Below are positions 23,028-63,442 of a stretch of 64,000 bases of DNA, piece after piece. The translations under genes were made by a program, and so were the position numbers. Source of the DNA: Pseudomonadota bacterium (GTDB lineage: Bacteria; Pseudomonadota; Gammaproteobacteria; Xanthomonadales; SZUA-38); the NCBI GenBank assembly GCA_039195135.1, contig JBCCVP010000002.1, positions 11,841-75,840 on the forward strand, written 5' to 3'. The notes below the pieces were generated by a model. That model searched no databases, had not been told where the DNA came from, and worked only from the letters and a program-made list of their open reading frames with translations. Position 1 is the first letter of the stretch, and each line of letters begins with the position of its first letter.

Positions 23028-23090
23028 GGCTTGCAGCCTGCCCCAAACCTGTCATTCTGACCATGAATTTAAGCTTGGGACTTGCTTGGG

Positions 23091-43228: not shown

Positions 43229-45298
43229 ATGAGCCAACGCGATTTCACCGAAGACGTAAGCGAGGTCCTGGCGGACGAACAGGCCTGGATTGCCCGCCGC
43301 CGCGAGGCCGCGGGCGTCGGCCCGGGTGAGGGTCTGCTCGGCCTCAGCCTGTCCGGCGGCGGGATCCGTTCTGCGGTATTCAACCTGGGGGTGCTGCAGG
43401 GGCTGGAATCGCTGGGCCTGCTGAAGCGGGTGGATGTCCTTTCCACCGTCTCCGGCGGCGGCTACATCGGCGCCACCCTGACCTGGCTGCGCCATCGGCT
43501 GGGGTCCAGCCATGACCAGGCTTTCTACGCTCCCCTGAGCGGCGACGAGGGCCATGTGCTGGACTGGCTGCGCAACCACGGCAAGTACCTGATCAGCCAG
43601 CCAGGCCTGTCGATCTGGACGGTGCTGGCCACCACCATCGCCGTGGTGCTGCTCAACCTGCTGGTGCTTCTGCCACCGATGCTGCTGCTGGTGGCGCTCG
43701 CGGCCCGGGATTGGCTGCCGCTGAGTTTCCCCGCGTTCCTGCTGCTCAACGATGCCGATCCGCTGATCGGTCACGATGGGTTTGTCGTGGCCCTGTACCT
43801 GTCCGCCGCGGCGGGGGCGGCTTTTCTGCTGATGATTGTGGTTTTTGCCGGCATTACCGCAACGCCACCCGGGCGGGCCGGCCGGGGCCTGACGGGCCTG
43901 CGCCGCTTCATGGGCAATCTGCTCCTGGCGGCCGTTGCGCTGTTTGCCGTTGGCATGGTCCCGATCTTCCACAGCCTGGATTCCCTCGCGGTGCGTTTTG
44001 TCGATACGGAGCTGGCGGCCGCGGTGACCCGCAACCTCACCTATTTGCTGCCGATGCTGGCCGGCGGGCTGACCTTGCTGCGTGCCCGCCGCGCGGCCGG
44101 TAGCGGCGCGGCGATTGGTCTTGGTCTGTTTCTCTACGGCTGTCTGGCGCTGACCTACCACCTCGTGGATCGCTTTGATCTGCTTTGGGACCCGGTCTTT
44201 AACACGTTTCTGCTGCTGTCGCTGACCCTCGCCGTGTTCTGCGACGTGAACCTCAATTCCATGCACCACTTCTACCGCGGCCGCCTGGCGCACGCGTTTT
44301 TGCCGCCGACCCGGGCCGGCGACGCAAACGGCAGCGCGGACCGGCAGGCCATGGCTTTTCGCCTGGCCGAGATCACCGCCGATTCCGGCGGACCGCTGCA
44401 TCTGATCAACACCACGATGAACACCACCACCTCCCCCTCGGTAAAGCTTCAGGGCCGCGGTGGTGACAACTTTGTGCTGTCGCCGCTTTACTGCGGCGCC
44501 CGGTCCACCGGCTATCGACGTACCGAAAGCTACCTCGCGGGTGCGCTTGAGCTGTCCACCGCGCTGACCATATCGGGCGCCGCCGTCGATCCGAACACCA
44601 GCCGGACCCGGTCCCGCCCGCTGGCGTTTCTGATGGCGCTGCTCAATATCCGACTCGGCTACTGGACCAACCATCCCCAGGAAAGCGGCGGCCGGCCGCT
44701 CGCGGCATGGCTGCGCTTTATCACCCGGGAGATGCTCGGCGTGGCCTTGAGCGAAAAACACCGCCACATTCACCTTTCTGACGGTGCCCACTTTGACAAC
44801 CTGGGGCTGTACGAACTGCTGCGCCGGCGCTGCCGCTACATCATCGCCACCGACGTCGGCGCAGACCCGCGCCTCACGCTGGCGGAACTGGGCAAAGCCA
44901 TCGAACGGGCCCGGGTCGACTTCCGCGCTCAGGTGGAGCTCAACGTAGACGCGCTCTACGACGAGCTGGATAAATCCCTGGCGGACCGGTCCTACGCGCT
45001 GGGCAGCGTCATCTACGCCGACGGCGCCGTGGGACAGCTGCTGTACATCCGCCCGATGATGTGCCGCGGCATGTCGGCCGACCTCTACGCCTACTGGCGC
45101 GACCATCCAACGTTCCCCAACGATCCGACTTCGGACCAGTTCTACGACGAAGCGCAATTTGAGGCCTATCGGGAACTGGGGCTGCAGACCGTCAGCCGCC
45201 TGGGGACTGGTCCGCAAACAGTGCTGCAACAGCTGTTCGAAGCCGAGGACAGCCCCGACCTCGGCGAGGCGGAGCTGCCCGAGGACCTGCGCGACTAG
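43229..45298 (+). CDS. patatin-like (cPLA2-like) phospholipase with internal polytopic membrane region
   Basis: Oxyanion SLSGGGIRS. Nucleophile motif STVSGGGY (Ser codon 43451-53). Catalytic Asp in HLSDGAHFDNLGLYELL (44780-82). About 6-7 hydrophobic helices lie between them. An alternative start at ATG 43208 would overlap the upstream gene by 14 nt. Confidence 0.82.
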   Translation: MSQRDFTEDVSEVLADEQAWIARRREAAGVGPGEGLLGLSLSGGGIRSAVFNLGVLQGLESLGLLKRVDVLSTVSGGGYIGATLTWLRHRLGSSHDQAFYAPLSGDEGHVLDWLRNHGKYLISQPGLSIWTVLATTIAVVLLNLLVLLPPMLLLVALAARDWLPLSFPAFLLLNDADPLIGHDGFVVALYLSAAAGAAFLLMIVVFAGITATPPGRAGRGLTGLRRFMGNLLLAAVALFAVGMVPIFHSLDSLAVRFVDTELAAAVTRNLTYLLPMLAGGLTLLRARRAAGSGAAIGLGLFLYGCLALTYHLVDRFDLLWDPVFNTFLLLSLTLAVFCDVNLNSMHHFYRGRLAHAFLPPTRAGDANGSADRQAMAFRLAEITADSGGPLHLINTTMNTTTSPSVKLQGRGGDNFVLSPLYCGARSTGYRRTESYLAGALELSTALTISGAAVDPNTSRTRSRPLAFLMALLNIRLGYWTNHPQESGGRPLAAWLRFITREMLGVALSEKHRHIHLSDGAHFDNLGLYELLRRRCRYIIATDVGADPRLTLAELGKAIERARVDFRAQVELNVDALYDELDKSLADRSYALGSVIYADGAVGQLLYIRPMMCRGMSADLYAYWRDHPTFPNDPTSDQFYDEAQFEAYRELGLQTVSRLGTGPQTVLQQLFEAEDSPDLGEAELPEDLRD

Positions 45299-45389
45299 GC
45301 AACCATTGGCCATCGTTCGGCGATCGTTAGCTGGCGGGATCACGGGTCCATCGCGTACCCTCAGCTTCCCGTCACCGCCAGGAAGTCTT

Positions 45390-46919
45390 ATGACTTTTTC
45401 CCGGAAACTGTCCTGCCTGCTGCTCGCCACCGGTCTGCTGGGCCTCAACGCCCAGGCGGCTGACCTCAAGGCGCTGAATGCCGAGACCGCCCGCTACGCA
45501 CACACCAACGGGGCTCAGATGCTGCGGGAGTTTCGCGAGTTTCTCAGCCTGCGCAACGTGTCCACCCGCGAGGAGGACATGCAGGCCAACGCAGCGTGGA
45601 TCACCGACTATATCGAGCGCCGGGGTTTTACCTCAAAAGTGGTATCGGCCGGCCGCTCCCCCTACGTGCTGGCCCACCGCCACGTGGACGACTCGGCCCC
45701 CACGCTGCTGATCTACGCCCACTTTGACGGCCAGCCGGTGCTGCCGCCCAACTGGGCCACGCCGCCTTTTACGCCCACGCTCAAGGACGGCGCCGAGGTA
45801 CTGGACTGGGAGCAGGCGCTGAGTGGCCCGCTCGATCCGGAGTGGCGGATCTACGCCCGCTCCGCCGGCGACGACAAGGCACCGGTCATCGCCCTGATGC
45901 ACGCCATCGACCTGCTGGCCGCCGGCGGCATCCCGCTAAGCGTCAACATCAAGCTGTTTCTGGACGGCGAAGAGGAGTTTGGCAGCCCCACCCTGCGCGG
46001 CATATTGGAGAACCACGCGGAGGAACTGGAAGCCGACCTCATGCTGTTCTGCGACGGCCCCATGCATCAGAGCCGGCAGCGGCAGGTGGTGTTCGGCGTG
46101 CGCGGCGACACGGCCGTCGACCTCACCACCTACGGCGCCATCCGGCCGCTGCATTCCGGCCACTACGGTAACTGGGCGCCCCACCCCACCGACAGCCTGA
46201 TCCGCTTGCTGGCCACGCTGAAGGACGAGCAGGGCAACATTCTGGTGCCGGGCTACGCGGAGGAAATGACGCCCGTCAGCGACGCGGAGCGGGCCGCGGT
46301 GGCAGCTATGCCGCGCATCGAAGACCAGCTGCGTGATGAGCTTTATCTGGGTCGGCTGGAGGGGGACGGCCGCCGTCTTGAGGAACTGGTGATGCAGCCC
46401 GCCATTACCATCAAGGGCTTCCAGGCCGGCGGCGTGGGCCGCCAGGCACGCAACGTGATCATCTCCAGCGCCACCGCTGCCCTGGACCTGCGGCTGGCAC
46501 CCGGTCAGACGGTCCTCGGCGTGCAGCAGGCGCTGAACGCGCACTTTCGCGCCCAGGGTTACCACCTGGTCTTTGAGGACCCCACGCCGCGGCAGCGGCG
46601 GGCGCATCCGAAACTGCTGAAGGTCGACTACGGGGAAAAAGGCTACCGGGCTTTTCGCACCCGGCTGGACGGCGCGGAGGCGAAAAAGCTGGTGGGCCTG
46701 ATCGAGGCGTTCGACGGCCAGCGTCCCCTGCTTACCCCGACCATGGGCGGCAGCCTCCCCATCTATCTGTTTGAGGACCTGCTCAAGCTGCCGATCATCA
46801 TCCTGCCGGTCGCCAACCACGACAATAATCAGCACGGCCGGGACGAAAACCTGCGGCTGGCCAACCTGTTTGACGCCGTGGGCCTTTACGCCGCGGTACT
46901 TGCAGGCTACGGCGACTGA
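45390..46919 (+). CDS. secreted M20/M25/M40 family metallopeptidase (dipeptidase-like)
   Basis: Start re-called to ATG 45390 after aggaag. Signal peptide LSCLLLATGLLGLNAQA. Motifs: IYAHFDGQP, ARSAGDDKAPV, LDGEEEFGSP. Confidence 0.85.
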   Translation: MTFSRKLSCLLLATGLLGLNAQAADLKALNAETARYAHTNGAQMLREFREFLSLRNVSTREEDMQANAAWITDYIERRGFTSKVVSAGRSPYVLAHRHVDDSAPTLLIYAHFDGQPVLPPNWATPPFTPTLKDGAEVLDWEQALSGPLDPEWRIYARSAGDDKAPVIALMHAIDLLAAGGIPLSVNIKLFLDGEEEFGSPTLRGILENHAEELEADLMLFCDGPMHQSRQRQVVFGVRGDTAVDLTTYGAIRPLHSGHYGNWAPHPTDSLIRLLATLKDEQGNILVPGYAEEMTPVSDAERAAVAAMPRIEDQLRDELYLGRLEGDGRRLEELVMQPAITIKGFQAGGVGRQARNVIISSATAALDLRLAPGQTVLGVQQALNAHFRAQGYHLVFEDPTPRQRRAHPKLLKVDYGEKGYRAFRTRLDGAEAKKLVGLIEAFDGQRPLLTPTMGGSLPIYLFEDLLKLPIIILPVANHDNNQHGRDENLRLANLFDAVGLYAAVLAGYGD

Positions 46920-46951: not shown

Positions 46952-47044
46952 GCCCGGCTCGCTGGCGGGCGCTTCCGCGGCGGGTCAGCTCAAGGCTTGC
47001 GCGTTTTGACCGATCTATCCGGTGGATATGCGCAGGTTTACGTC

Positions 47045-48439
47045 ATGTTGAGCGAATCCCCGGATTCCGGTCACGGCAGCGCGCCAGCGGAGAATCCGCC
47101 CACGCGGAATGACGACCGCCTGGCATGGCGCGCTTTGCAGATGATCTTTGCCCAGAACGGACCCGCCACCGCCGGCGGTGCCGCCTGCTTTGTGATGGTG
47201 TGCATCGCATTCTGGTACGTGGTGCCCGGCTGGGTGTTGATCGGCTGGGCGATCGCTTATGGCCTGGTCGTTTCCTATCGCTATCTGCGGATGGCCGAGT
47301 ACGCCAAGACCCGGACACGGGATCCAGAGAAACTGGAGTCCTGGCTGACACGCATGGACCGGATGCAGCTGATGACCGGCGCGCTTTGGGGGGCGCTGCT
47401 GGCCCATCTGACGATGATCGGCAATGCCGGTCAGCTGGTGGTGGTCACCATCCTGATGACCGGACTGGTGACCGGCGGACTGCTGGCCTATTCCTCCCGG
47501 GAAAAAACGTTCGTGCTCTTCTCGTCCGCCATGAGCCTGCCGGTGATGGCCGGCATGCTCGCCCGGCCGGAGCCTCTTTACTTTGCCGCCGCCCTGGTGG
47601 GGCTGTGGTTCGTGTTTCTTAAATCTTGCGCCGGGAAGTTCAGCGAGTTCTACCTCCACTCGGTCACCCTGTCGCTGGAGAATAAGGACCTGGCCCGGGA
47701 TCTTGAGCAACGCAACGCCCAGGTCACCGAGCTCAACGCAGCGCTTGAGGAAAAGGTGCAGCAGCTTGGCGAAGCCAACGAACGGCTGCTCGAGGAACAG
47801 GACCGCATCGTGGCGTTTGCCTCGGAGCTGGATCGGCTCAGCACCACCGACTCCCTCACCGGCATCCCTAATCGGCGTCGTTTTGAACTGGTGCTGGAGC
47901 GCACCTGGGACAAGGCGATCCGGCATCGCCAGCCCATCGCGCTGATCCTGCTGGACATCGACCACTTCAAACCCTTCAACGATCATTATGGTCACCGCAG
48001 CGGCGACGATTGCCTGACGCGGGTGGCGCAGATCCTCGTGGCCACCGCCGGCCCCGACGCCACCGTGGCGCGCTACGGGGGAGAAGAGTTTGTCGTGATC
48101 CTGGCGGACACGGGGCTGAAGCAGGCCAGCGACGTCAGCCACGCGCTGGTGCAGGCGGTTACCGACGCGGGTATTCCCCACGAGGCCAGCGGGACCGGCT
48201 TGCCTCACGTTACCGTCAGCGCCGGCCTGGCGGTGCACCGCCCCACGTACAGCTGCAGCTCCGCCGAGCTGATCGAAAACGCGGACGCGGCGCTCTACCA
48301 GGCCAAAGATCGCGGCCGCAATCAGGTCGCCAGCGCGCAGACCGCCGGCCGTATCTCGCTGGATCCGCCGAAACAGATCGAACTCGACGACGGCTGGCCG
48401 GGGGATTACCGCCGCCGGGCCGAGGGCAAGCCCCGCTAG
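47045..48439 (+). CDS. membrane-bound diguanylate cyclase (N-terminal multi-TM sensor region, coiled coil, GGDEF domain)
   Basis: ATG 47045. Five to six TM helices, a coiled coil (LENKDLARDLEQRNAQVTELNAALEEKVQQL), then the GGDEF domain DSLTGIPNRR...LDIDHFKPFNDHYGH...RYGGEEF. Confidence 0.9.
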   Translation: MLSESPDSGHGSAPAENPPTRNDDRLAWRALQMIFAQNGPATAGGAACFVMVCIAFWYVVPGWVLIGWAIAYGLVVSYRYLRMAEYAKTRTRDPEKLESWLTRMDRMQLMTGALWGALLAHLTMIGNAGQLVVVTILMTGLVTGGLLAYSSREKTFVLFSSAMSLPVMAGMLARPEPLYFAAALVGLWFVFLKSCAGKFSEFYLHSVTLSLENKDLARDLEQRNAQVTELNAALEEKVQQLGEANERLLEEQDRIVAFASELDRLSTTDSLTGIPNRRRFELVLERTWDKAIRHRQPIALILLDIDHFKPFNDHYGHRSGDDCLTRVAQILVATAGPDATVARYGGEEFVVILADTGLKQASDVSHALVQAVTDAGIPHEASGTGLPHVTVSAGLAVHRPTYSCSSAELIENADAALYQAKDRGRNQVASAQTAGRISLDPPKQIELDDGWPGDYRRRAEGKPR

Positions 48440-49239: not shown

Positions 49240-49356
49240 GGGCGTGCGCGGCCGGTTGTTGGGACAATCCAGCGCAGTATCCCACAGGCCCCGCGGGGTT
49301 TGCTCACGGCCGGGGCGACTGCGATCATGGGCGCCCCCCAAAACGCCGGAAAGGTC

Positions 49357-51402
49357 ATGCGACGACTGTTTCTATTCCTGATTTTGCCCACCGCCGTGCT
49401 CGCGGCCGAGGCCGACCCAACTGCCTTCACCGGGCTGGATGTCTTTGAGCTGGAGGTTGCGGCGGACCCGCAGGTCGCGCCGGACGGCTCCCGCATTGCC
49501 TACACCCGCCGGTCCATGAACGTGATGGTCGATCGGCCGGTATCACAGATCTGGATCATCGATGTGGACGGCGACCGGCACCGCCCGCTGGTGACCGGCC
49601 CGGCCTCCTACAGCAGCCCCCGCTGGTCGCCGTCCGGGGATCGCCTCGCGTACGTCAGCAATGTCGAGGGTCGGGGTCCACAGATCCACGTTCGCTGGAT
49701 GGATACCGGGCAGACGGCGGTGGTGACCAACGTGCGCTCCGCGCCGGGTTCGGTCACCTGGTCGCCGGATGGTCGGCAGCTGGCTTTCAGCCGGTTTGTG
49801 GAGGCGGACGGTAAGCCGCTCGCAAGTCCGCCGAAGAAGCCGGAAGGCGCCAAGTGGGCACCGCCAGTAAAGGTCATCGACCGGATGCCCTATCGCTTTG
49901 ACGGCGCCGGCTATCTGGACCCGGGTTTTAATCAGGTGTTTGTGGTTTCCGCGGAGGGCGGCACGCCGCGGCAGCTGACGCAGGGAAACTACAATCATGG
50001 CGGCCGCCTGGCCTGGACCAGCGATGGGGCGCGGCTGATCCTGGCCGCCAACCGGCAGCCCGACGCCAACCATGACCCGGTGGAGAGCGAGCTGTGGTCG
50101 GTGGACGTTGCCAGCGGCGAGATGACCGCCCTGACCGACCGGAACGGACCGGACACAGCGCCGACAATCTCGCCCGGGGGAGACACCGTCGCTTACCTGG
50201 GATTTAATGACCGGCGCCTGGGGTACCAGTCCCCGGACGTCTACCTGCTGGATTTAGGCGACCGCACGTCCCGCAACCTGACGGAGACCTTTGACCGGCA
50301 GATTGACGACGTCCAGTGGGCCGGCCGCAACCGCCTGATGATCCAGTACGACGACCGCGGCCAGACCCACCTGGCCACGCTGACGCTCGACGGCACGATC
50401 ACCGAGGTGACCAACGATGTGGGCGGGGTAGCCCTGGGCCGCCCGTACACCTCCGGCGGATTTATGGTCAACCGCGGCGGCGTCTTCGCCTACACCGCCG
50501 GGCGGCCTGACCGGCCGGCAGACCTCGCCGCCGGCCGCCGCGGCAAGGTCCAGCGCCTGACGGATCTGAACGAAGACGCGCTGGGTCACAAGCAGCTCGC
50601 CGCCATCGAGGAGGTCACCTGGCCGTCAAAAGACGGCAAGTACGAAGTTCAGGGCTGGATCGCCAAACCGGCCGGCTTTGATCCGGAGCGGCGCTACCCG
50701 ATGATCCTGGAGATCCACGGCGGACCGTTTGCCGCCTACGGACCCCAGTTTTCCCCGGAGGTACAGCTGTTTGCCACCGCCGGCTATCTGGTTTTCTACG
50801 CCAACCCGCGGGGATCCACCAGCTACGGGGACGCGTTTGCCAACGAAATCCATCACAACTACCCCAATGAGGACTACGACGATCTCATGGCCGGCGTCGA
50901 TACGCTCATTGAGCGCGGCCTGGTGGACCCGGACCGGCTGTTTGTCACCGGCGGCTCCGGCGGCGGGGTGCTCACCTCCTGGATCGTCGGCAAAACCCAG
51001 CGGTTCCGCGCCGCCGTGGTGGCCAAACCGGTGATCAACTGGATCAGTTTTACGCTCACCGCGGACGGCACTCACTTTTTCACCCGCTACTGGTTTGAGA
51101 AATTTCCCTGGGATGACCCGATGGCCTACTGGAAGCGGTCGCCGCTTTCGCTCGTGGGCAACGTCACTACCCCCACGGCCCTGCTGACCGGCGAAGCCGA
51201 CTACCGCACGCCGATCTCCGAGTCGGAGCAGTACTACCAGGCGCTTAAGCTGAGAAAGGTGGACACGGCGCTGATCCGCATTCCCGAAGCCTCCCACGGC
51301 ATCGCCGCGCGGCCATCCCATCTGATTGCCAAGATCGACAACATCGTGGCCTGGTTCGGCCGCTACGACGAGCAGCCGGAGGCCGCCGGGGAGGACGGTT
51401 GA
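49357..51402 (+). CDS. secreted S9 family serine peptidase (TolB-like propeller + prolyl oligopeptidase catalytic domain)
   Basis: Start re-called to ATG 49357. Signal peptide MRRLFLFLILPTAVLAA. PD40-type blades (PRWSPSGDRLAYVS, VTWSPDGRQLAFS). Catalytic triad context GGSGGG ... EASHG. Confidence 0.9.
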   Translation: MRRLFLFLILPTAVLAAEADPTAFTGLDVFELEVAADPQVAPDGSRIAYTRRSMNVMVDRPVSQIWIIDVDGDRHRPLVTGPASYSSPRWSPSGDRLAYVSNVEGRGPQIHVRWMDTGQTAVVTNVRSAPGSVTWSPDGRQLAFSRFVEADGKPLASPPKKPEGAKWAPPVKVIDRMPYRFDGAGYLDPGFNQVFVVSAEGGTPRQLTQGNYNHGGRLAWTSDGARLILAANRQPDANHDPVESELWSVDVASGEMTALTDRNGPDTAPTISPGGDTVAYLGFNDRRLGYQSPDVYLLDLGDRTSRNLTETFDRQIDDVQWAGRNRLMIQYDDRGQTHLATLTLDGTITEVTNDVGGVALGRPYTSGGFMVNRGGVFAYTAGRPDRPADLAAGRRGKVQRLTDLNEDALGHKQLAAIEEVTWPSKDGKYEVQGWIAKPAGFDPERRYPMILEIHGGPFAAYGPQFSPEVQLFATAGYLVFYANPRGSTSYGDAFANEIHHNYPNEDYDDLMAGVDTLIERGLVDPDRLFVTGGSGGGVLTSWIVGKTQRFRAAVVAKPVINWISFTLTADGTHFFTRYWFEKFPWDDPMAYWKRSPLSLVGNVTTPTALLTGEADYRTPISESEQYYQALKLRKVDTALIRIPEASHGIAARPSHLIAKIDNIVAWFGRYDEQPEAAGEDG

Positions 51403-55090: not shown

Positions 55091-55627
55091 ATGCTCATCG
55101 CGTTTAACAAACCCTGCGGCGTGCTTTGCCAGTTCTCCGGCGAGGGGGCAACGCTAGCGGACTATATCGATGTACCCGGCGTCTATCCCGCCGGCCGGCT
55201 CGATAAAGAGTCCGAGGGATTGCTGCTGCTCACCGACGACGGCAGCCTGCAGGCGCGCATCAGCTCACCCCGCTTCAAGCAGCCCAAAACCTACTGGGTG
55301 CTGGTGGAGCGGGTGCCGACGGAGGCCGCGTTGCAAAACCTGCGACAAGGCGTGCCGCTGAAAGACGGTCTGACCCGACCGGCGCAGGCCCGGCGCATAC
55401 TTGCCCCGCCCAATCTCTGGCCCCGGGACCCGCCGGTGCGGCAGCGCAAGAACGTCGAAGACGTCTGGCTGGAGATCATCCTGCGGGAGGGTCGAAACCG
55501 ACAGATCCGGCGCATGACCGCCGCGGTCGGGCACCCGACGCTGCGGCTGGTGCGGTACGCAATCGGCACCCGGACCGTTGCGGGCCTGGCGCCGGGGCAA
55601 TGGCGGGAGATCAACCCGCACGGCTGA
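55091..55627 (+). CDS. rluE: rRNA pseudouridine synthase, RsuA/RluE family (no S4 domain; RluE-like)
   Basis: ATG 55091 (the track start at 55085 is TTG). Motifs: FNKPCGVLCQF, catalytic AGRLDKESEGLLLLTDDG, KTYWVLV, GRNRQIRRM. Confidence 0.8.
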   Translation: MLIAFNKPCGVLCQFSGEGATLADYIDVPGVYPAGRLDKESEGLLLLTDDGSLQARISSPRFKQPKTYWVLVERVPTEAALQNLRQGVPLKDGLTRPAQARRILAPPNLWPRDPPVRQRKNVEDVWLEIILREGRNRQIRRMTAAVGHPTLRLVRYAIGTRTVAGLAPGQWREINPHG

Positions 55628-55712
55628 GGAGCCAGTGCCGCACTCGGGGCGCGTTGGCGCGGTGCCAGGGCGCGTGCTATACCTTTTGAGGGCAGGGAGC
55701 GGGAAGCAGTCC

Positions 55713-58700
55713 GTGGTCAGTCCAGGACGGATTGAGAAATCATTGGTCAAATCGTGTCGCGCGCTGAGCTTCATCTCGGCCTGCGGGCTCACGCTTGGCC
55801 TGATCACCGGCGCCGGCGCCCAGCCTTTCAACCTCATCGACCGGACCGGCCAGTGCGTTACCTCGCCGCTGCTGGGTCTCAGTCAAAATATTGATCCGCC
55901 GGGCACAAGCCAGATCGTGCGCAGTGCCGATCGGTTTCGCGTCCCGGACGGGCCGGACTGGCGCCTGGACAGCGTCCAGGCGCAGGGAACGTTCAGCGGC
56001 AGCCAGGTGAACCCTCTGGGGGCCGACGTGCGCATATTTGCCAACGACGGCGCTTCCCCGGGGCCGGGAACGCAGGTCTGCACCTACTCATTCCCTCTCG
56101 CGGAAATTGGTCCCCTGGCCAACAGTGGCCAGTTTGACATCACGCTCCCCGGGGGCGCCCAGGCCTGCCAGCTGTCCGCCGGCGACTACTGGTTTTCTGT
56201 CGCCTTTCTCGGGACTATCGGCGTGAATCCAGCCCAGGGTCGGTTCTGGTACTGGAACCAGTCCACGGAAAACCAGCAGGGGAATTGGCAGATGCGGGCG
56301 GCGGACGATATCGACGCCAGCGGCATCAACTGCCCCGACTGGGTGACCCGGGAGCAGTGCTCGGCCGTCACCCAGGAGCGCGGCCTGTGTTTTGCCATCA
56401 GCGGCAACACGCCGATCACGTTGGCCGAACCGCTGGCGGACCAGTTCACCAGCGCCGGCACCAGCTTCCTCATGGACGTGTCGTCCGCGTTCACCGATCC
56501 GGACGGCGACGACGCCTTCTACCAGGCCATCGGCCTGCCCGCCTCGCTGACGCTCAACGAGGCCACCGGACGCATCAGCGGCACGATCGAGGCCGGCGAT
56601 GTCGCCGGCAGTCCCTACACGGTGGAAATCACCGCCACCGACGACGATGACGTCAGCGCGGAGGACACGTTCCGCCTGGTGGTGGCGGACGATGAGGTGG
56701 CGGATTTTCGCTTTCAGCGCCTCTGGCCGGTGCTGCAGCAGCCCTGGTACTTCGGCACCAGCGCGCCCGACTTAAGCTTCAATGGCTCCACCCTGTTTGT
56801 CGCCAACCCCACCTTCTCCCGCATCCAGCGCTTCAGCCCGGCCGGGAAGCACATCAGCAACCTGTTCATTCCCGGCCCCGGCGGCCCCGCCACCCGGGGC
56901 AAGCCTCGCGTACTGGCCGCCAGCACCCGCGCGGTTTTTACCGCCGGAGATCTGGACCCCCAGATCTACAAGCTGGGCCTGAACGGTGAAGTCCTGGACC
57001 GCTTCGGCGCTGACGAGCTGGCGGGCCAGGTGCCGCAGTTTCTGGAAGCGACCGAAAGAGGCTGCCGCCGGCTGGGCGGCTGTGTCTATGTCGGTCTTGC
57101 GGATGAGGTGCTGAAATTCAGCGAAGACGGTCAGTTTCTGAGCCGGTTTGGCCTTTGCGCCGACCCGCCGTGCGAAAACGGTACGGTGCAGCAGCTCGGC
57201 GGCCTTACGGTGGGTCCCGATGGCCTTGTCTACCTGACGGATCAGGCGGAAGACCAGCTGATTATTCTGCGCACCTCGCCCGCCGCAGCGCTGATCGACC
57301 CGCCCGAGTTCCTTGCCGAAATTGGCGAACCAGGCAGCGGGCCGGGGCAGTTTGCCAGTCCCGGGGATGTCTCCCTGGACGGAGCCGGGCGCGTCTACGT
57401 GGCGGACGCAAACCGGGTGCAGGCGTTTTCGCCGCAGGGTGTGCCGCTGGATGAGTACGTGGCGCCTAGCGAAGCCCAGGTATTGCGGCGCCTGGAGTTT
57501 GGGCCAGAGCGGCTGGCGTTCGGCAGCAATGATCTGGCGCAGGTAACGCGCTTCCGCCGCGTCGGCGACGTGGACGCCGGCGCTTCGACGCTGAACTTCT
57601 CAACGCCGTTTTCCAGCGCCGACGACCGGGTGGGGTTTTTCCAGCAGCCGATTGATCTCGCCACCGGACCCAACAGCAACGTTTACGTGGCTGATGCGGG
57701 CAATCATCGGGTGCAGAAGTTTGATCCAGCCGGGCAGCTGCTCAACGCATTTGGCAAAGAAGGTGACGAGGACGGCGAGTTTGGCCGAATGATCGCTATC
57801 GGCACCGGTTCCATCGCGGGCGAACTGCGCGCCCACGTGCTGGACGAAAACATCACGGGCTATCGGATTCAGCGCTTCACGAGCGGCGGCGACTTTGTTG
57901 ACAGCATCGCCCTGCCCGGCAACGACGACTACGTCGACATGGAAATCGGCAGCGGCGGCGCCGCCTTTCTGGTCACCGCCGCAGGTCTCGCGGTCAAGGT
58001 GTCAACGCAGGGCGAGGTGCTGGCCACCTGGGAGCCGATGGCGTCCGGCGCGCAGTTTCTGCAGGTGGCCCAGGCGCCCAACGGCCTGTTTTACTTCACC
58101 GTGCAGGGTCAGAGCCAGGAAGGCTTTGCGATCTACGACCGGTTCGGCAACTTTGTTGCCTTTCTACCGGCCACCTTCAACGCGCCCGCGTCTTTGAGCG
58201 TCGCCGGCGACGGCAAGATTGTGCTGGGGGAGATTCCGGACATTGCGCCGGACGTGCCGCGCATCAAAATCTACCGCCAGGACGGCGTGCTGCTGCAGTC
58301 GGTGGGCCAGTACGGCTATTTCCCCGGGTCGTTTGCGGCGCCGGCAGGGCTGGATTTTGCACCCAACGGGCTGCTCTACATCAGCGACTCGGTCAACAAC
58401 TACGTGCAGGTGCTCGACCCGGTGCCGCCGGCGGAGATCACCCGGGCCGTAGTGGTGGCCGGCGGTGGTCCCTACCCGGGAAACAACCTGTGGGAAACCA
58501 CCCAGGCGCTGACCAACGGCGCCTACCTGGCGCTGGCCTACCAGGGCCTGCGGGCCGAGGACATTACCTACCTGTCGTCCAATCTCGACGAAGACCTCGA
58601 CGGCAACGGCATCTCCGACGTGGACTTTCCCGCCAGCGCCCCGTCGCTGGTGACCGCCATCAGCATGGCGGCGGACGGCGCGGACCGGCTTGTCGTCTAT

Positions 58701-61700
58701 CTTGCCGACCACGGCTCGGAAGATGTCTTTCGGGTGAGCCCCCAATCGGTGCTCGACGCCGCAGCGCTGGATGCGGCCCTCGACAGCGCCCAGAGCGGCC
58801 CGACCGCCGTCGACCAGCTTGTCCTGATCTACGATGCCTGCCGCGCCGGCAGCTTCGTCGACGACCTGGCCAGCCCCGGGCTCAACCGCATTGTGCTGGC
58901 CAGCACCGGTGCCGACGAAAGCGCCAAATTTGTATCCGGCGGGATCTTGAGCTTCTCCAACCAGTTCTGGACCCAGATCTTCACCGGGGCTGATCTGGCG
59001 GCTGCCTACGCCAGCGCCTCGCAGATCATGACCACGTCTTTTTCCGACCAGACCCCGCTGGCGGACGCCGACGGTGATGCCAACCCGAACGAAAGCGCCG
59101 ACGACCTGACCGCGCTCAGCGGCGTGTTTATTGGCGCCGGCACCAATTTCGATCCCGGCGCGCCGGTGATCGCCAGCGTCTCCGATCCGCAGGTGCTGGC
59201 CGACGGAAACGAGGCGCAGATAAGCGCCTTCGGCGTGACCGATCCCGACGGCGTGGCGCGCGTCTATGCCGAAATTGTGCCGCCCAATTTTGTCGACGGC
59301 GACATCGACCAGCCGGTGCAGGCGTTTCCCGGCTTCGAATTGGAGCCGGATGCACCGGGAAGCAGCGACTACACCCTGATCTTCGACCGCTTCAGCAGCG
59401 AGGGGACGTATACGATCAATGTTTACGCCCAGGATCGTTTTGGTAATCTCTCCGCCCCCGCGACCACTACCGTTACCGCTGGCAACCCGGAGCTGCGCAA
59501 GGCACTGCTGATTGTCGGCGGGGAAACCAGCGACCCGCGCTGGTCTGCCTACAGCGCCAACGGCGCCTTCGCGTACGCCGCCCTCACCGCCCAGGGCTAC
59601 AGCGACGCGGGCCTGGAAACCGTTCGCTACCTGTCCAACGGCGGAACGGACGGTGTCGATGACGTCGCCAGCAGCGCCACGGTTGCCGGCGCCTTTGCCT
59701 GGGCCGGCGAACAGGCCCAGGACGTGGTGGTCTACCTGGTGGGTGGGGTTCGCAGTGGCGCCCTGCGGCTCGCCAGCGGTGAACGGCTCACCGCCCTTGA
59801 GCTGAGCGGCTATCTGGATATGCTGGAGGCCAGCATCAGCGGCAAGCTGGTGGTGCTGTATGACGGCAACCGGTCCGGCGCGTTTCTGCCCCGGCTGACC
59901 TCCCCAAATCCCGGCAGGCGAATCCTGCTGACCAGCACCGCCGCGTCGGAAAGCGCCAGCTTTCTGCTGGAGGGAGCTTTAAGCTTCTCGCAGTTTTTCT
60001 GGAACCAGGTGCTGAACGGTGCCACGGTGCTCGAGGCGTTCGAGACGGCTCGGGATGCGGTAGGTTTTTCCGCCGGCGACCAGACGCCGCAGCTTGATGA
60101 CAATGCCAACGGCGAAGGCAACGACGCCGAAGATGGTTTTGTCGCCAGCACCTACGACATCGGCGCCGGGATTGTGCAGGACATCAATGGACCCAGCGCG
60201 GGTGCCCTGACGCCCGACATCCAGCTCACCGGCGGCGTCACCCAGGCCACCATCACGGTGAACAACGTCACCAGCGCCTCCGGCGTGGATGAGGTGTTCG
60301 CCATCGTGGGAAGCCCACCGCCGCAGCAGACTTCTGACACGTTTGTGCTGGCGCCGGTCACTGTGGATGGCAACGGCAACGGGCAGTACGACGGCACCTA
60401 CGCCAACTTCGGGCCTTTGCCGGGCGGTGGCTATGCCGCCGGGTTTTATCTGGTCACCGTCTATGTTCGGGATCAGCGCGGCAACATCGCGCTCCACGAC
60501 ACGGTGCGGGTTGAGCAGTCGGCGGGGCCGGACGGGTGGGAGGATGACGACATTCCGGTCGAGGCGTCGGTGATCTTTGTCGATGACGCCGACGCCCAGC
60601 GGCACACGTTGCATGAGGATGATGACAGCGACTTTGTCTCCTTCAACGCCGTGAACCGCAGCGGATCGGCCCAGACCTATGAGCTCTCGGTGTCGGAGAT
60701 TGATGATTACTCCGGCGGCACCTACAACGTTACCCTGGAGCTCTACGGGCCAACCACGCCGCCGGGTTCTCCCCTGGCCACCGCCACGGGCGGGATCAGC
60801 GGCAGCGTTTCCCTCACCTGGCCGTCTTCCGGCAATTCCTATGATGAAGGCGAAGGTGAGTACTACCTGCGGGTGCTGGCCGCCAGCGGTACTCAACGCG
60901 GGCGCTACGCGGTGCGGGTGTTCCGTCCGGCGGTGCCGCTGACGGGCGCGGTCCGGGGCAGCGTGGTAGACGCCCTGACGGGCGAACCGGTCCCGGGAGC
61001 CCTGATTGCCACCAGCGGCACCGTCGCCGCCGCGAGCAACCTGATCGGCGAATACCAGCTGGTGGAAAACCCGGGCACCTACAGCCTGACCGTGACGCCA
61101 CCGGCCGGATATCTGCCGCTCACGGAAAACAACGTGCCCGTTTCCGAAAGCCTCACCACCTGGCGGCTGCTGCAGGTTCAGCCCAGCGGCGCCGCGCCGT
61201 CGGTTCAGACGGGCGAAGCCACCGGCATTACCCAGACCACCGCCACCCTCAACGGCCTGGTGGCGCCCAACGGTGAGCTCACCGCCGTGGTGTTTGAAAT
61301 CCTGCCGGCGGGCCCGGCGATCACGCAGCCGCCGGACGTTGCGGGGGATGCCCCGCAGAGCGACGCGGCGGCGCAGGTTACGGGCCTGACCTGCGAAACC
61401 GACTACACCTTCCGGATCACCGCCAGCAACGCAACGGGCAGCAGCAACGGCGCCAGCGAAGCGCTGCGCACCGCCGACTGCGTTGCGCCGCCGGTGCTGA
61501 CCACCGTCACCGCCAGCAACCTTAGCGATGAGACCGCCCGGCTGGAGGCGTCGGTGGATCCGGTGGGCAGCGAAACCATCACCGCGTTCCGCTGGCGCCC
61601 CGCGGGCGGTGTGTTTAATCCCTACCAGGACTCGCCCGATGTGCTCACCGGCAGCGGGACCCAGGTGGCGGGCCTGAACATCGACACCCTGACCTGCGCC

Positions 61701-63053
61701 ACCGTCTACGACTACCAGGCGCGCGCCAGCAACGCCGGCGGCACCGCCGAATCGACGGTGCAGAATTTCAGCACGGCGGTCTGCCCACAGACGCCCCCGA
61801 CGGTGGTTACGCTGGCGGCCCAGAACATCACCGAAACCGGCGCGGACCTGCGCGCCTCGGTGGACGCGAACGGCGACACCGCGAGCGTTGAGTACCGCAT
61901 CAACGCGGTAGGCGACGCGCCGGGCGCCTGGCAGACCGCCGGCACCGTGGCCACCTCGGAGCAGGTGACGGTCACCGTCAGCAGTCTGGATTGCGGCCGC
62001 GACTACCAGTACCGCTTCCGCGCCAGCAACAGCGGCGGCACCACGGAAGGGTCCGACCAGGGGCTGACCACGCTGGACTGCGCCGACGATTTCCCCGAGG
62101 TCCAGACGGACCCCGCCACGCTCGTCGGGCAAACCAGCGCCACGGTAAATGCGCTGGTCGACCCCAATGGCAGCAGCACCCAGGTGTTTTTTGACTACGG
62201 CCTTTCCGGCCTGCTCGACGAAACGCTGGCGTTGGAAAGTCCACTTGAGGGCAGCGACCCCGTCAGCCAGTCGGCCCGGCTGGAAGGCCTGGCCTGCGGC
62301 CAGCAGTACAGCTACCGGGTGCGCGGCAGCAACACCGCCGGGACCGCTTTCGGTGCCACCCGCACCTTCACCACCAACCCCTGCGACCGGATCCTGCTGG
62401 TGGACGACGACAGCAATAGTCCGGACCTGACGCCGGTTTACGGCGGTTTGCTGGACACGCTGGGGTTCGCCTACACCGTATGGAATACGGGTGGGGAGGA
62501 CGCCGAGCCGCAGGCCGGTGACCTCGCGCCCTACAGCACCGTGCTGTGGTTTACCGGCGACAACGCCGCCGCCGGCACCGGACCGGGCCCCGCCGGTGAG
62601 GCGGCGCTGGCGGATTATCTCGACGCCGGGGGCTGTCTGGCGCTCAGCGCGCAGAATTATTTTGCCGTCCGCGGACCCACGCCGACGACGCTGATGAGCG
62701 ACTACCTCGGGGTGGCCGGCGGCGTCGCCAATGCCGGGCTGCAGAACGTTGCCGGGGTCTCCAGCGCCTTTGCCGGGCTCCCCACTTCCGGCACTTATCT
62801 GCTTGATTTTGCCGGCGCATCATTGAGCTCCGCAGCAGACGAACTCACCGTTACCGGCGGCGGCGAGGTGGCATTTGAAGGCGACGGCCAAGCCACGGCG
62901 GGCATCCAGGTGATCGCCGACAGCTATCGATCCCTGTTCCTCGGCTTTCCGCTGGCGGCCATTCCTGGAGCGGCCGAGGGGGGGGCAGCGCTGAGCGCGG
63001 TGCTCGACTTCTGCCGCGGCCAGGATGTTTTGTTCAGCAATGGATTTGAGTGA
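55713..63053 (+). CDS. giant secreted multidomain protein (He_PIG/cadherin-like Ig, NHL propellers, 2x C13 legumain-like+Ig modules, PPC-like, CarboxypepD_reg-like, 4 Cys-pair repeats, alpha/beta C-terminal domain)
   Basis: Continuous ORF to TGA 63051-53. There is no ATG near the signal peptide (KSCRALSFISACGLTLGLITGAGAQP). Candidate starts are GTG 55713 (6 nt after gggaag) or TTG 55743. The track start at 55578 overlaps rluE and encodes Arg/Gly-rich junk. Domain motifs are listed in the findings. Confidence 0.85.
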   Translation: MVSPGRIEKSLVKSCRALSFISACGLTLGLITGAGAQPFNLIDRTGQCVTSPLLGLSQNIDPPGTSQIVRSADRFRVPDGPDWRLDSVQAQGTFSGSQVNPLGADVRIFANDGASPGPGTQVCTYSFPLAEIGPLANSGQFDITLPGGAQACQLSAGDYWFSVAFLGTIGVNPAQGRFWYWNQSTENQQGNWQMRAADDIDASGINCPDWVTREQCSAVTQERGLCFAISGNTPITLAEPLADQFTSAGTSFLMDVSSAFTDPDGDDAFYQAIGLPASLTLNEATGRISGTIEAGDVAGSPYTVEITATDDDDVSAEDTFRLVVADDEVADFRFQRLWPVLQQPWYFGTSAPDLSFNGSTLFVANPTFSRIQRFSPAGKHISNLFIPGPGGPATRGKPRVLAASTRAVFTAGDLDPQIYKLGLNGEVLDRFGADELAGQVPQFLEATERGCRRLGGCVYVGLADEVLKFSEDGQFLSRFGLCADPPCENGTVQQLGGLTVGPDGLVYLTDQAEDQLIILRTSPAAALIDPPEFLAEIGEPGSGPGQFASPGDVSLDGAGRVYVADANRVQAFSPQGVPLDEYVAPSEAQVLRRLEFGPERLAFGSNDLAQVTRFRRVGDVDAGASTLNFSTPFSSADDRVGFFQQPIDLATGPNSNVYVADAGNHRVQKFDPAGQLLNAFGKEGDEDGEFGRMIAIGTGSIAGELRAHVLDENITGYRIQRFTSGGDFVDSIALPGNDDYVDMEIGSGGAAFLVTAAGLAVKVSTQGEVLATWEPMASGAQFLQVAQAPNGLFYFTVQGQSQEGFAIYDRFGNFVAFLPATFNAPASLSVAGDGKIVLGEIPDIAPDVPRIKIYRQDGVLLQSVGQYGYFPGSFAAPAGLDFAPNGLLYISDSVNNYVQVLDPVPPAEITRAVVVAGGGPYPGNNLWETTQALTNGAYLALAYQGLRAEDITYLSSNLDEDLDGNGISDVDFPASAPSLVTAISMAADGADRLVVYLADHGSEDVFRVSPQSVLDAAALDAALDSAQSGPTAVDQLVLIYDACRAGSFVDDLASPGLNRIVLASTGADESAKFVSGGILSFSNQFWTQIFTGADLAAAYASASQIMTTSFSDQTPLADADGDANPNESADDLTALSGVFIGAGTNFDPGAPVIASVSDPQVLADGNEAQISAFGVTDPDGVARVYAEIVPPNFVDGDIDQPVQAFPGFELEPDAPGSSDYTLIFDRFSSEGTYTINVYAQDRFGNLSAPATTTVTAGNPELRKALLIVGGETSDPRWSAYSANGAFAYAALTAQGYSDAGLETVRYLSNGGTDGVDDVASSATVAGAFAWAGEQAQDVVVYLVGGVRSGALRLASGERLTALELSGYLDMLEASISGKLVVLYDGNRSGAFLPRLTSPNPGRRILLTSTAASESASFLLEGALSFSQFFWNQVLNGATVLEAFETARDAVGFSAGDQTPQLDDNANGEGNDAEDGFVASTYDIGAGIVQDINGPSAGALTPDIQLTGGVTQATITVNNVTSASGVDEVFAIVGSPPPQQTSDTFVLAPVTVDGNGNGQYDGTYANFGPLPGGGYAAGFYLVTVYVRDQRGNIALHDTVRVEQSAGPDGWEDDDIPVEASVIFVDDADAQRHTLHEDDDSDFVSFNAVNRSGSAQTYELSVSEIDDYSGGTYNVTLELYGPTTPPGSPLATATGGISGSVSLTWPSSGNSYDEGEGEYYLRVLAASGTQRGRYAVRVFRPAVPLTGAVRGSVVDALTGEPVPGALIATSGTVAAASNLIGEYQLVENPGTYSLTVTPPAGYLPLTENNVPVSESLTTWRLLQVQPSGAAPSVQTGEATGITQTTATLNGLVAPNGELTAVVFEILPAGPAITQPPDVAGDAPQSDAAAQVTGLTCETDYTFRITASNATGSSNGASEALRTADCVAPPVLTTVTASNLSDETARLEASVDPVGSETITAFRWRPAGGVFNPYQDSPDVLTGSGTQVAGLNIDTLTCATVYDYQARASNAGGTAESTVQNFSTAVCPQTPPTVVTLAAQNITETGADLRASVDANGDTASVEYRINAVGDAPGAWQTAGTVATSEQVTVTVSSLDCGRDYQYRFRASNSGGTTEGSDQGLTTLDCADDFPEVQTDPATLVGQTSATVNALVDPNGSSTQVFFDYGLSGLLDETLALESPLEGSDPVSQSARLEGLACGQQYSYRVRGSNTAGTAFGATRTFTTNPCDRILLVDDDSNSPDLTPVYGGLLDTLGFAYTVWNTGGEDAEPQAGDLAPYSTVLWFTGDNAAAGTGPGPAGEAALADYLDAGGCLALSAQNYFAVRGPTPTTLMSDYLGVAGGVANAGLQNVAGVSSAFAGLPTSGTYLLDFAGASLSSAADELTVTGGGEVAFEGDGQATAGIQVIADSYRSLFLGFPLAAIPGAAEGGAALSAVLDFCRGQDVLFSNGFE

Positions 63054-63079
63054 CTGACCAACCCGCGGGGAGCCTTGCC

Positions 63080-63442
63080 ATGACCGAACGCGTTGCCCCG
63101 TCCGCCTGGTCCCAGGCCGCGTACCTCGCCGTGGGTGTGGTGCTTCTGCTGTGGGGCATCGGCGGGCTCATCATCTACGTTGCCTACTTCATCGAAACCC
63201 CGGATGAATTTGCCCTGACCGCCGAAACCGCCGCCAACCGGGACGCCTATGCCCAGTACGTGGCCAATATTCCCTGGTGGGCCATCGGTGCGGGACTCAT
63301 CGCCGCGGCAGCGCGCTTTCTCGGCGCGATTGGCCTGTTGCTGCGCAAAGCCTGGGCGCTGCCGCTGTATATCATCGCCCTCATCTTTTTTGCCGTCGCC
63401 CTGTTCCGCGCGTTTGGCTGGCAGACGTCGCCAGCGTCATGA
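63080..63442 (+). CDS. small membrane protein (3 TM as written; a 4th TM is encoded in a different reading frame (63277 ORF) through 63540 - possible frameshift)
   Basis: ATG 63080, or GTG 63050 overlapping the giant-gene stop as GTGA. Three clear TM helices. The overlapping frame from ~63415 to the TAG at 63538-40 encodes ADVASVMSPAHVGIEVTFVALSLFAIGFAYWHKSRGLLT. Confidence 0.5.
   Translation: MTERVAPSAWSQAAYLAVGVVLLLWGIGGLIIYVAYFIETPDEFALTAETAANRDAYAQYVANIPWWAIGAGLIAAAARFLGAIGLLLRKAWALPLYIIALIFFAVALFRAFGWQTSPAS

Follow-up and report, generated by a model that had tools for sequence, protein, structure and literature searches.

A C13-like peptidase domain and its dyad-less paralog form a conserved tandem in a large bacterial protein family

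Does a bacterial polypeptide that carries two homologous cysteine peptidase-like domains, one with an intact catalytic dyad and one without, pair an enzyme with a relic, or is the dead copy a working part of the protein? The question is raised by a giant gene in a 64,000-nucleotide stretch of the genome of an environmental Gram-negative bacterium of the Pseudomonadota (contig JBCCVP010000002.1, positions 11,841 to 75,840; hereafter the window, to which all coordinates refer), where a single open reading frame (ORF; 55578-63053, forward strand) holds both copies; the gene itself was taken as 55743-63053, encoding 2,436 amino acids. A sequence-only reading of this stretch had proposed one potentially active peptidase next to a pseudo-protease paralog, a view that the evidence from dyad, fold and conservation presented here supports. 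Beyond that reading, we find that a large bacterial family carries the pair as a fixed cassette of ancient origin. The features on which the argument turns are the following.

55743-63053, forward strand: giant gene for a multidomain protein predicted to be secreted (from the ORF listing, start candidates and Pfam layout)
58446-59144, forward strand: copy 1, a C13 (legumain-like, clan CD) domain of 233 amino acids (from Pfam PF01650, PDB alignments, hhalign and the model)
58710-58712, forward strand: predicted catalytic His codon CAC, residue 990 counted from the Met at 55743, aligned with legumain His148
58839-58841, forward strand: predicted catalytic Cys codon TGC, residue 1033, aligned with legumain Cys189
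59145-59495, forward strand: Ig-like β-sandwich 1 and the conserved NPLxR-K linker into copy 2 (all-β, model residues 240-345)
59499-60173, forward strand: copy 2, a pseudo-protease domain of 225 amino acids (from BLASTP to copy 1, the model and Foldseek)
59745-59747, forward strand: Gly codon GGG at the catalytic His position, the preceding Asp also being replaced by Gly (59742-44)
59868-59870, forward strand: Asn codon AAC at the catalytic Cys position (from the module alignment)
60174-60533, forward strand: Ig-like β-sandwich 2 (all-β, model residues 590-690), homologous to Ig-like β-sandwich 1 in the module alignment

The two modules of ~345 amino acids, each consisting of a protease-like part and a β-rich part, had been described as homologous, and BLASTP comparison of 58446-59495 with 59499-60520 bears this out, with 31% identity over 343 amino acids (E 3e-32) and an alignment spanning both parts. 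The four codons at the catalytic positions (CAC at 58710-12, TGC at 58839-41, GGG at 59745-47 and AAC at 59868-70) and the 43-residue spacing between His and Cys of copy 1 are likewise as first described, and only the proposed start of the first module at 58444 had to be corrected, since this position is out of frame and the first codon lies at 58446. The earlier immunoglobulin (Ig) label for the β-rich parts holds in part: their predicted structure is all-β, but the Pfam matches of these stretches to PKD, Big_3 and InlK_D3 are all below threshold (E 0.005-0.06). We therefore regard 'Ig-like β-sandwich' as a reasonable description of the modeled structures and assign no family.

Copy 1 matches the Pfam family Peptidase_C13 (PF01650) with 34.7-38 bits, against a gathering cut-off of 22.8, and its only His and only Cys are the two residues at the catalytic positions, within the His-Gly ... 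Ala-Cys dyad motifs (DHG with H990, then DAC with C1033). In phmmer alignments with PDB sequences, 'YLADHGS' of copy 1 is aligned with 'YYTDHGA' of legumain and 'YDACRAGS' with 'LEACESGS', and with the family profile of copy 1 this match to legumains improves to E 3e-7. Comparison of a 200-sequence copy 1 profile with human legumain using hhalign yielded a probability of 96% and the same dyad equivalences, the numbering of the human sequence having been checked against the residues quoted in PMC4357240. The Pfam C13 alignment and those with legumain, asparaginyl endopeptidase (AEP) and PIGK thus place the catalytic His and Cys at the sites originally proposed.

The predicted structures agree with this assignment. 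The AlphaFold2 model of the tandem (691 amino acids, 50-sequence alignment) has a mean predicted local distance difference test (pLDDT) score of 91.5 and a predicted template modeling (pTM) score of 0.87, and the PDB entries most similar to it are legumains of plants and humans together with peptide asparaginyl ligases (PALs), with E values of ~1e-8 and template modeling (TM) scores of ~0.6 on the mature catalytic domains. Both copies are predicted to adopt the caspase-like α/β fold, in which a central β-sheet is flanked by helices, and both best match legumains and PALs, in line with the clan CD fold expected from the sequence. Because a pTM of 0.87 extends over four domains, the model points to a defined mutual arrangement of these domains. 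Taken together, the fold, the dyad and the score above the Pfam threshold support the affiliation of copy 1 with clan CD and family C13.

The resemblance to legumain does not extend to the substrate-binding site. In legumain, the zwitterionic S1 pocket specific for Asn and Asp consists of Arg44, His45, Ser216 and Asp231, with Arg44 and His45 located on helix α1 (PMC4357240). In the hhalign alignment, which is confident around α1, T18 and T19 of copy 1 stand at legumain Arg44 and His45, and an Ala and an Asn are found at Ser216 and Asp231, respectively; in loop L5, the alignment is weak. Furthermore, the C-terminal activation peptide and LSAM prodomain that make legumain a pH-activated zymogen were not found after copy 1 by Pfam or in the model; in place of the helical, death-domain-like LSAM, an all-β Ig-like domain is present there. 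Because Arg44 and His45 are replaced by Thr-Thr, copy 1 would lack the Asn/Asp specificity of legumain. The earlier description of the copies as legumain-like is thus accurate for copy 1 with regard to the C13-like fold and dyad, but not to the Asn/Asp S1 residues and the prodomain. With both of these absent, membership of copy 1 in the legumain/AEP subfamily is not supported, and, judging from its sequence, copy 1 is probably C13-like in fold and dyad without being an asparaginyl endopeptidase.

In copy 2, the corresponding contexts are altered, with YLVGGVRS aligned to YLADHGSE of copy 1 and LYDGNRSG to IYDACRAG. His and Cys are absent from the entire copy 2 domain, and therefore, an alternative thiol-imidazole arrangement is impossible in it. 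No direct match to copy 2 was found in Pfam or NCBIfam, and by sequence alone its profile had no significant match to PDB sequences or human legumain, the best, weak match among the PDB sequences being PIGK/GPI8 (E 0.25). Modeled alone, copy 2 reached a pLDDT of 94.6 and a pTM of 0.92, and the Foldseek search of the PDB with this model was topped by PALs and legumains (E 1e-8, query-normalized TM score [TMq] 0.6-0.71), followed lower in the list by PIGK and the caspase-8:cFLIP complex (3h11), with the matches ranging from E 1e-8 to 1e-5. Copy 2 is assigned to C13 because of its homology to copy 1 and this fold match.

The tandem belongs to an extended family. An initial impression of rarity, created by word-indexed searches that returned just 9 and 7 matches, was overturned by an exhaustive profile search, which identified 5,666 representative clusters at E <= 1e-3, of which 1,985 also passed E <= 1e-30. 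A scan of species-representative genomes, queried with copy 1-type sequences only, yielded 78 loci (designated L followed by a number). The closest of these, with 66-68% identity to copy 1, come from Lysobacterales and other Pseudomonadota, the closest relatives being Lysobacterales metagenome-assembled genomes; the other loci include many from Desulfobacterales, Desulfococcaceae and Desulfonema (L068 and L074 belong to the culturable Desulfonema magnum), as well as Hydrogenedentota, Nitrospirales and Syntrophobacteraceae. In the NCBI annotation, the relatives are named 'C13 family peptidase'. Every module was aligned to the family hidden Markov model, and the two catalytic columns were read, with 'HC + --' denoting that copy 1 has both residues and copy 2 neither, and 'HC + -C' that copy 2 retains the Cys without the His.

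Two-module ORFs at the genome loci (n=69): 'HC + --', 51; 'HC + -C', 17; other, 1 (order reversed)
Two-module proteins (n=142) among 149 top representatives: 'HC + --', 98; 'HC + -C', 31; other, 13

A copy with His and Cys followed by a copy without His is accordingly found in 68 of the 69 two-module genome ORFs and in 129 of the 142 two-module representatives. Among ~200 non-redundant tandems, the His of copy 1 is conserved in 99%, the Gly next to it in 100%, the Ala-Cys pair in 96% and 97%, respectively, and the Asp two residues ahead of the Cys in 96%. The dyad of copy 1 is thus kept by the relatives, as the view of copy 1 as potentially active had implied, and in copy 2 the His is essentially never present. 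Selection on a clan CD active site would be expected to leave such a pattern. The pattern is also an argument against the possibility that neither domain is an enzyme and that both are structural or adhesive modules, with the His and Cys of copy 1 kept for non-catalytic reasons; those two residues are, moreover, the sole His and Cys of the domain in the window. Although biochemical data on bacterial members were not found in the literature and the S1 residues of legumain are not conserved, both of which would be compatible with a non-enzymatic role, we consider this explanation very improbable.

In copy 2 of the same ~200 tandems, the Asp-His pair is replaced by Gly-x, with the Gly present in 92%. 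The relatives at the genome loci have N, P, E, A, D or K in the His column, with His occurring just once, and D (26), C (18), S (12), E (5) or N (4) in the Cys column. In about one-quarter of the copy 2 domains, the YDACxSGS motif is intact, Cys included, with GNG, GKG or GDG in place of DHG (examples are found at L004, L005, L010, L021, L023, L025, L033, L047, L055 and L070). At the Lysobacterales loci where the columns were read, copy 2 lacks both residues. The Cys-keeping domains could be evolutionary intermediates or could put the Cys to a non-catalytic use.

The two copies form separate lineages: the nearest neighbor of a copy 1 domain is another copy 1 domain in 187 of 202 cases, and that of a copy 2 domain is another copy 2 domain in 187 of 201. 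Because the copies cluster by type, the duplication is older than the spread of the family. In most of 161 proteins, 117-119 amino acids separate the two protease-like domains. The copy 2 domains of the window and L001 share an amino-acid identity of 0.72 and the copy 1 domains one of 0.67, and the ratio of nonsynonymous to synonymous substitution rates (dN/dS) between L001 and L002 is, approximately, 0.047 for copy 2 and 0.039 for copy 1. Thus, among the closest orthologs of the window protein, the conservation of copy 2 equals or exceeds that of copy 1, and across phyla, conservation extends to the live-then-dead order, the spacing and the copy 2 sequence.

These observations bear directly on the simplest account of the dead copy, namely, that it is a decaying relic of the duplication without a function of its own. 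The loss of the dyad and the faster evolution of copy 2 across the family (mean identity 39% within the copy 2 set and 49% within the copy 1 set) are what such decay would look like. However, copy 2 is held in the same position in Pseudomonadota, Desulfobacterota, Hydrogenedentota and Nitrospirales, has conserved residues of its own and a confidently predicted structure, and evolves with a dN/dS of ~0.05, like copy 1, the closest orthologs even conserving it more strongly than copy 1. The relic hypothesis is therefore strongly disfavored, to the point of being nearly negligible. Copy 2 is better described as a pseudo-protease, that is, a homolog that lacks the dyad and is under purifying selection, with the ratio being approximate due to saturation of synonymous sites.

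The organization of the loci varies in other respects. Head-to-tail arrays of paralogs, in which single-module and tandem forms are mixed, are frequent (four genes each at L022 and L074, three at L028, and two each at L003, L004 and L021). At L039 and L044, the live and dead modules are carried by neighboring or overlapping ORFs, possibly as a result of gene splitting or frameshifts.

What, then, could the dead copy do? The sequence-only reading had offered regulatory, substrate-binding or scaffolding roles, and the residues kept and lost in copy 2 are informative in this regard. Conserved in both copies are Y27, L30, Q33-G34, D130, G135, F137, R148, S153, G166, the S-F-S motif, F174-W175 and G181, whereas conservation is restricted to copy 1 for the GGGPYPGNxLW loop after strand 1, T19 (97%), N24, the DLDxNGxxDDVD loop, D88-H89, R96, C132 and E158, and to copy 2 for the Tyr of QGY, D74, G81, D200 and G212. 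One of the elements specific to copy 1 is an Asp/Asn-rich loop.

58587-58625, forward strand: loop DEDLDGNGISDVD, EF-hand or DxDxDG-like, present in copy 1 and deleted in copy 2 (from the family columns)

In the copy 1 family, the columns of the DEDLDGNGISDVD loop show frequencies of 0.96 and 0.93 for two Asp, 0.88 for Asn, 0.89 for Gly and 0.85-0.87 for further Asp, whereas in copy 2 they are gaps in 75-87% of the domains (51% at the Gly column). Both copies have another Asp/Asn-rich loop, QTPxLDDNGNGxGNE (59055-59105 in copy 1 and ~60078-60125 in copy 2). Judging by their composition, the Asp/Asn-rich loops are possible Ca2+ sites, and such a function would agree with the requirement for Ca2+ seen in other clan CD enzymes of bacteria.

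Retention of the shared core (D130, G135, R148, S153, G166, SFS and FW) and of the legumain-like fold in the copy 2 model would be in keeping with a role of copy 2 as a substrate-binding exosite or decoy, which holds substrates or inhibitors without cutting them and presents them to copy 1, and ligand-binding clan CD pseudo-proteases are known, namely, pseudo-orthocaspases and the MCA4 pseudopeptidase of T. brucei (PMC7475262). The elements that surround the dyad have, however, been lost from copy 2, including the GGGPYPGNxLW loop, T19 (the residue at legumain S1 His45), the DLDxNG loop, D88 and E158, and therefore, the cleft of copy 2 appears to have been remodeled rather than only disarmed. 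Because copy 2 lacks the cleft-lining loops in addition to the dyad, a structural or regulatory partner fits better than a substrate-binding decoy, and we regard the exosite explanation as unlikely. Of the roles suggested earlier, we accordingly infer a structural or regulatory one in preference to substrate binding.

The explanation that we favor, and consider fairly probable, is that the tandem forms a four-domain cassette, old and conserved, that follows an NHL propeller and consists of an active C13-like peptidase, an Ig-like domain, a dead paralog and a second Ig-like domain, with copy 2 serving as a structural or regulatory partner. Copy 1 would be the sole hydrolytic center and would cleave substrates, or its own protein, after a P1 residue that is probably neither Asn nor Asp. 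Copy 2 would be rigidly attached as a structural or allosteric partner, in effect the mate in an intramolecular pseudo-dimer, and would stabilize, position or regulate copy 1. A rigid intramolecular partner is suggested because the spacing is conserved, the NPLxR-K linker is short and conserved, and a pTM of 0.87 was obtained for the four domains. For such a role, precedents would be provided by subdomain A of gingipain toward subdomain B, the pseudo-protease domain of separase toward the active domain, and cFLIP toward caspase-8. The NHL propeller and the Ig and FN3 domains would supply target binding, and Ca2+ would perhaps be needed, via the EF-hand-like loops.

What copy 1 acts upon allows for a further possibility, which is compatible with the partner role of copy 2, namely, that copy 1 is a self-processing domain, like the cysteine protease domains (CPDs) of MARTX and TcdA/B, or a transpeptidase, like GPI8/PIGK and plant PALs, that acts on its own polypeptide or on a dedicated partner. 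Family C13 includes the glycosylphosphatidylinositol (GPI) transamidase and PALs, both of which are among the structural matches; copy 1 sits midway in an adhesin-like giant protein; and autoprocessing is common among clan CD enzymes (PMC4357240). Nevertheless, we identified no conserved candidate cleavage site, and at the level of sequence and model nothing separates a hydrolase from a ligase; we regard this possibility as quite unlikely.

Several considerations weigh against the cassette explanation. The putative contact between copy 1 and copy 2 is deduced solely from the pTM of the model and the conserved spacing. Monomeric legumain is itself active, so that a partner is not a general requirement of C13 enzymes (PMC4357240), and our literature search found no enzymatic data on any bacterial C13 homolog. 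The top representatives were ranked by summed score, which favors two-module proteins, although the pattern inside the two-module proteins is independent of this bias. In the dN/dS comparisons, dS is saturated (>1), and the ratios are only indicative. Finally, the scaffold idea leaves the retention of the Cys in about one-quarter of the copy 2 domains unexplained.

A bolder form of the cassette explanation, which we put forward tentatively and regard as possible but doubtful, is that the tandem is a single-chain counterpart of caspase-8/cFLIP. It would represent a new bacterial branch of clan CD, in which a legumain-fold peptidase works only as a linked heterodimer with its dead paralog, the dead domain shapes or gates the active site, and P1 specificity differs from that of every characterized C13 enzyme, the whole being a widespread extracellular processing engine (~2,000 representative clusters, in Desulfobacterota, Pseudomonadota and Hydrogenedentota).

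Enzymes of family C13 are of interest to immunology, plant biology and protein engineering, the last of which makes use of peptide ligases such as butelase and OaAEP1. A family of ~2,000 clusters with a permanent pairing of live and dead copies offers a natural, genetically simple system for studying the role of pseudo-protease partners in clan CD, and with its S1 pocket unlike that of legumain, it may supply new cleavage or ligation specificities. Should the dead copy turn out to be dispensable and the specificity ordinary, the finding would shrink to a correct domain annotation.

The tandem is embedded in a larger, conserved architecture. The start of the giant gene was taken as the TTG at 55743 because it results in a typical signal peptide, MVKSCRALSFISACGLTLGLITGAGA, and agrees with the N-termini of the mature orthologs. 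From the N-terminus, the protein comprises the signal peptide, an N-terminal domain, a He_PIG Ig domain, the NHL β-propeller, the C13 domain, an Ig-like domain, the pseudo-C13 domain, the second Ig-like domain, a region without assignment, a CarboxypepD_reg-like domain, FN3 repeats, a C-terminal domain and a short GFE tail, and the orthologs of 2,452-2,465 amino acids have an identical layout. Features outside the tandem are as follows.

55743-55820, forward strand: predicted signal peptide MVKSCRALSFISACGLTLGLITGAGA (read from the sequence; the cleavage before QPFNLIDR was deduced, not computed)
56730-58442, forward strand: NHL-repeat region (Pfam NHL E 2.6e-16, three stretches; boundaries approximate)
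63006-63053, forward strand: extreme C-terminal tail DFCRGQDVLFSNGFE, then the stop codon (read from the sequence)

Downstream of the predicted signal peptide, the sequence continues as QPFNLIDRTGQC; in the orthologs, whose own signal peptides end in '...AHA', the mature chain begins with QLLNLVDRTGSC at the equivalent place. With signal peptides predicted in both the window protein and its orthologs, the giant protein is predicted to be secreted. The NHL region, which also has a partial match to NCBIfam ScyF-NHL, presumably forms a β-propeller directly preceding copy 1; in the family consensus, ~12 repeats of the form GxxYVxDxxNxRIQKF are located upstream of the tandem.

The termini of the protein are lineage-specific in part. 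For the N-terminal domain (55821-56540), there was a weak, sub-threshold NCBIfam match to 'choice-of-anchor R' (E 0.0033, 17 bits against a cut-off of 30) and no match among Pfam or PDB sequences. This domain is specific to the ~2,450-amino-acid Lysobacterales orthologs, and most relatives instead begin with 'Y(R/E)FERLWPxLQQPWYF' and NHL repeats. The C-terminal domain of ~220 amino acids (62340-63005; ILLVDDDSNSPDL...SAVLDFC) is conserved in the orthologs and has no Pfam, NCBIfam or PDB sequence match. The giant protein ends in '...DVLFSNGFE', immediately before the stop codon. This tail has the form of a hydrophobic residue, any residue, F or Y, any residue, N, D or S, and G-F-E, followed by 0-3 residues, and is common to Lysobacterales members in which the preceding domains are quite different (ORFs at L001, L002, L003, L006, L007, L011, L013, L014 and L018). 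No NCBIfam model matches it; from this distribution, the GFE tail may be a lineage-specific C-terminal sorting or secretion tag.

In the window, the giant gene is flanked by genes for a pseudouridine synthase, the upstream gene ending at 55627, an MscS-type channel and a small membrane protein. None of the three is conserved beside the orthologs, and we found no functionally linked neighbor among them. The small protein, a predicted membrane protein of 130 amino acids (63050-63442, forward strand) that is likewise absent beside the orthologs, has a GTG start overlapping the stop codon of the giant gene, an arrangement that suggests possible translational coupling. Each of the three closest orthologous loci has, downstream of the giant gene and in its orientation, four genes, which encode a Peptidase_C14 caspase-domain/DUF4384 protein, a POTRA outer-membrane transporter of the ShlB/FhaC type, a CHASE2-adenylate/guanylate cyclase and a protein of 280 amino acids; a 203-amino-acid ORF common to all three loci precedes the giant gene.

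L001, 7958-14089: downstream four-gene set
L002, 8037-14156: downstream four-gene set
L003, 14791-20695: downstream four-gene set

None of these neighbor genes was found by tblastn in the 64-kb window. The cluster may be a set of secretion or signaling partners that has been lost from, or is located elsewhere in, the genome from which the window derives. A role of the tandem in anti-phage defense was considered as well and set aside, since PADLOC gave no match for the whole protein or for either domain. The window encodes other peptidase-like proteins, namely, two TolB-propeller/S9 Dpp5-like proteins and one M20-type dipeptidase (23082-25169, 45159-46919 and 49300-51402), along with a GGDEF diguanylate cyclase (46997-48439). 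An antisense ORF of 717 codons (59979-62132, reverse strand), whose product would be rich in Arg, Gly and Ala, most likely arises from the G+C content of 65-67% and is not a gene.

How does the tandem compare with characterized systems? A full-text literature search (bacterial or prokaryotic legumain, C13 with NHL repeats, C13 pseudoproteases) retrieved nothing relevant. Legumain/AEP (4aw9; OaAEP1, 5h0i), the best PDB match of copy 1 by both sequence and fold, shares with it the caspase-like α/β fold, the His-Gly ... Ala-Cys order, a similar His-Cys spacing (43 residues in copy 1 and 41 in legumain) and the motifs DHG, (D/E)AC-x-SGS and ES. Unlike legumain, copy 1 has Thr-Thr in place of Arg44/His45, an Ig-like domain instead of LSAM and two EF-hand-like loops, is embedded in a bacterial extracellular protein of 2,436 amino acids, and is paired in cis with a dead paralog. 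GPI transamidase PIGK/GPI8, also of family C13, resembles the tandem in placing a C13 fold inside a multi-component assembly with non-catalytic partners, but is part of a eukaryotic endoplasmic reticulum membrane complex, has partners that are not C13 paralogs, and performs transamidation to GPI.

Among the systems in which an active clan CD domain is accompanied by a dead one, gingipain R (RgpB, family C25) is likewise a secreted bacterial protease with an Ig-like domain after the catalytic domain; its non-catalytic subdomain A resembles the active subdomain B (PMC4626109), and the enzyme is Ca2+-dependent (PMC4357240). It differs in family, in that the dead subdomain comes first and in that the subdomains are fused without an intervening Ig domain, whereas the window protein has two full, clearly homologous C13 domains, each with its own Ig-like domain. 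In separase (C50), a dead clan CD-like domain adjoins the active one in one polypeptide (10.1101/069906), the remainder of the protein being a large non-catalytic region; however, separase is eukaryotic, intracellular and of another family, and its pseudo-protease domain, which precedes the active domain, is highly diverged, an earlier modeling study having failed to detect it (PMC4626109). Caspase-8/cFLIP, pseudo-orthocaspases and MCA4 exemplify dyad-less clan CD paralogs that are kept by selection as partners or regulators of active enzymes, with 13% to 44% of cyanobacterial orthocaspases lacking the His-Cys dyad (PMC7475262), but these are separate polypeptides of family C14, whereas the pair in the window is covalent and its architecture is fixed across phyla. 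None of these precedents, gingipain, separase, caspase-8/cFLIP or orthocaspase/MCA4, is a C13 tandem.

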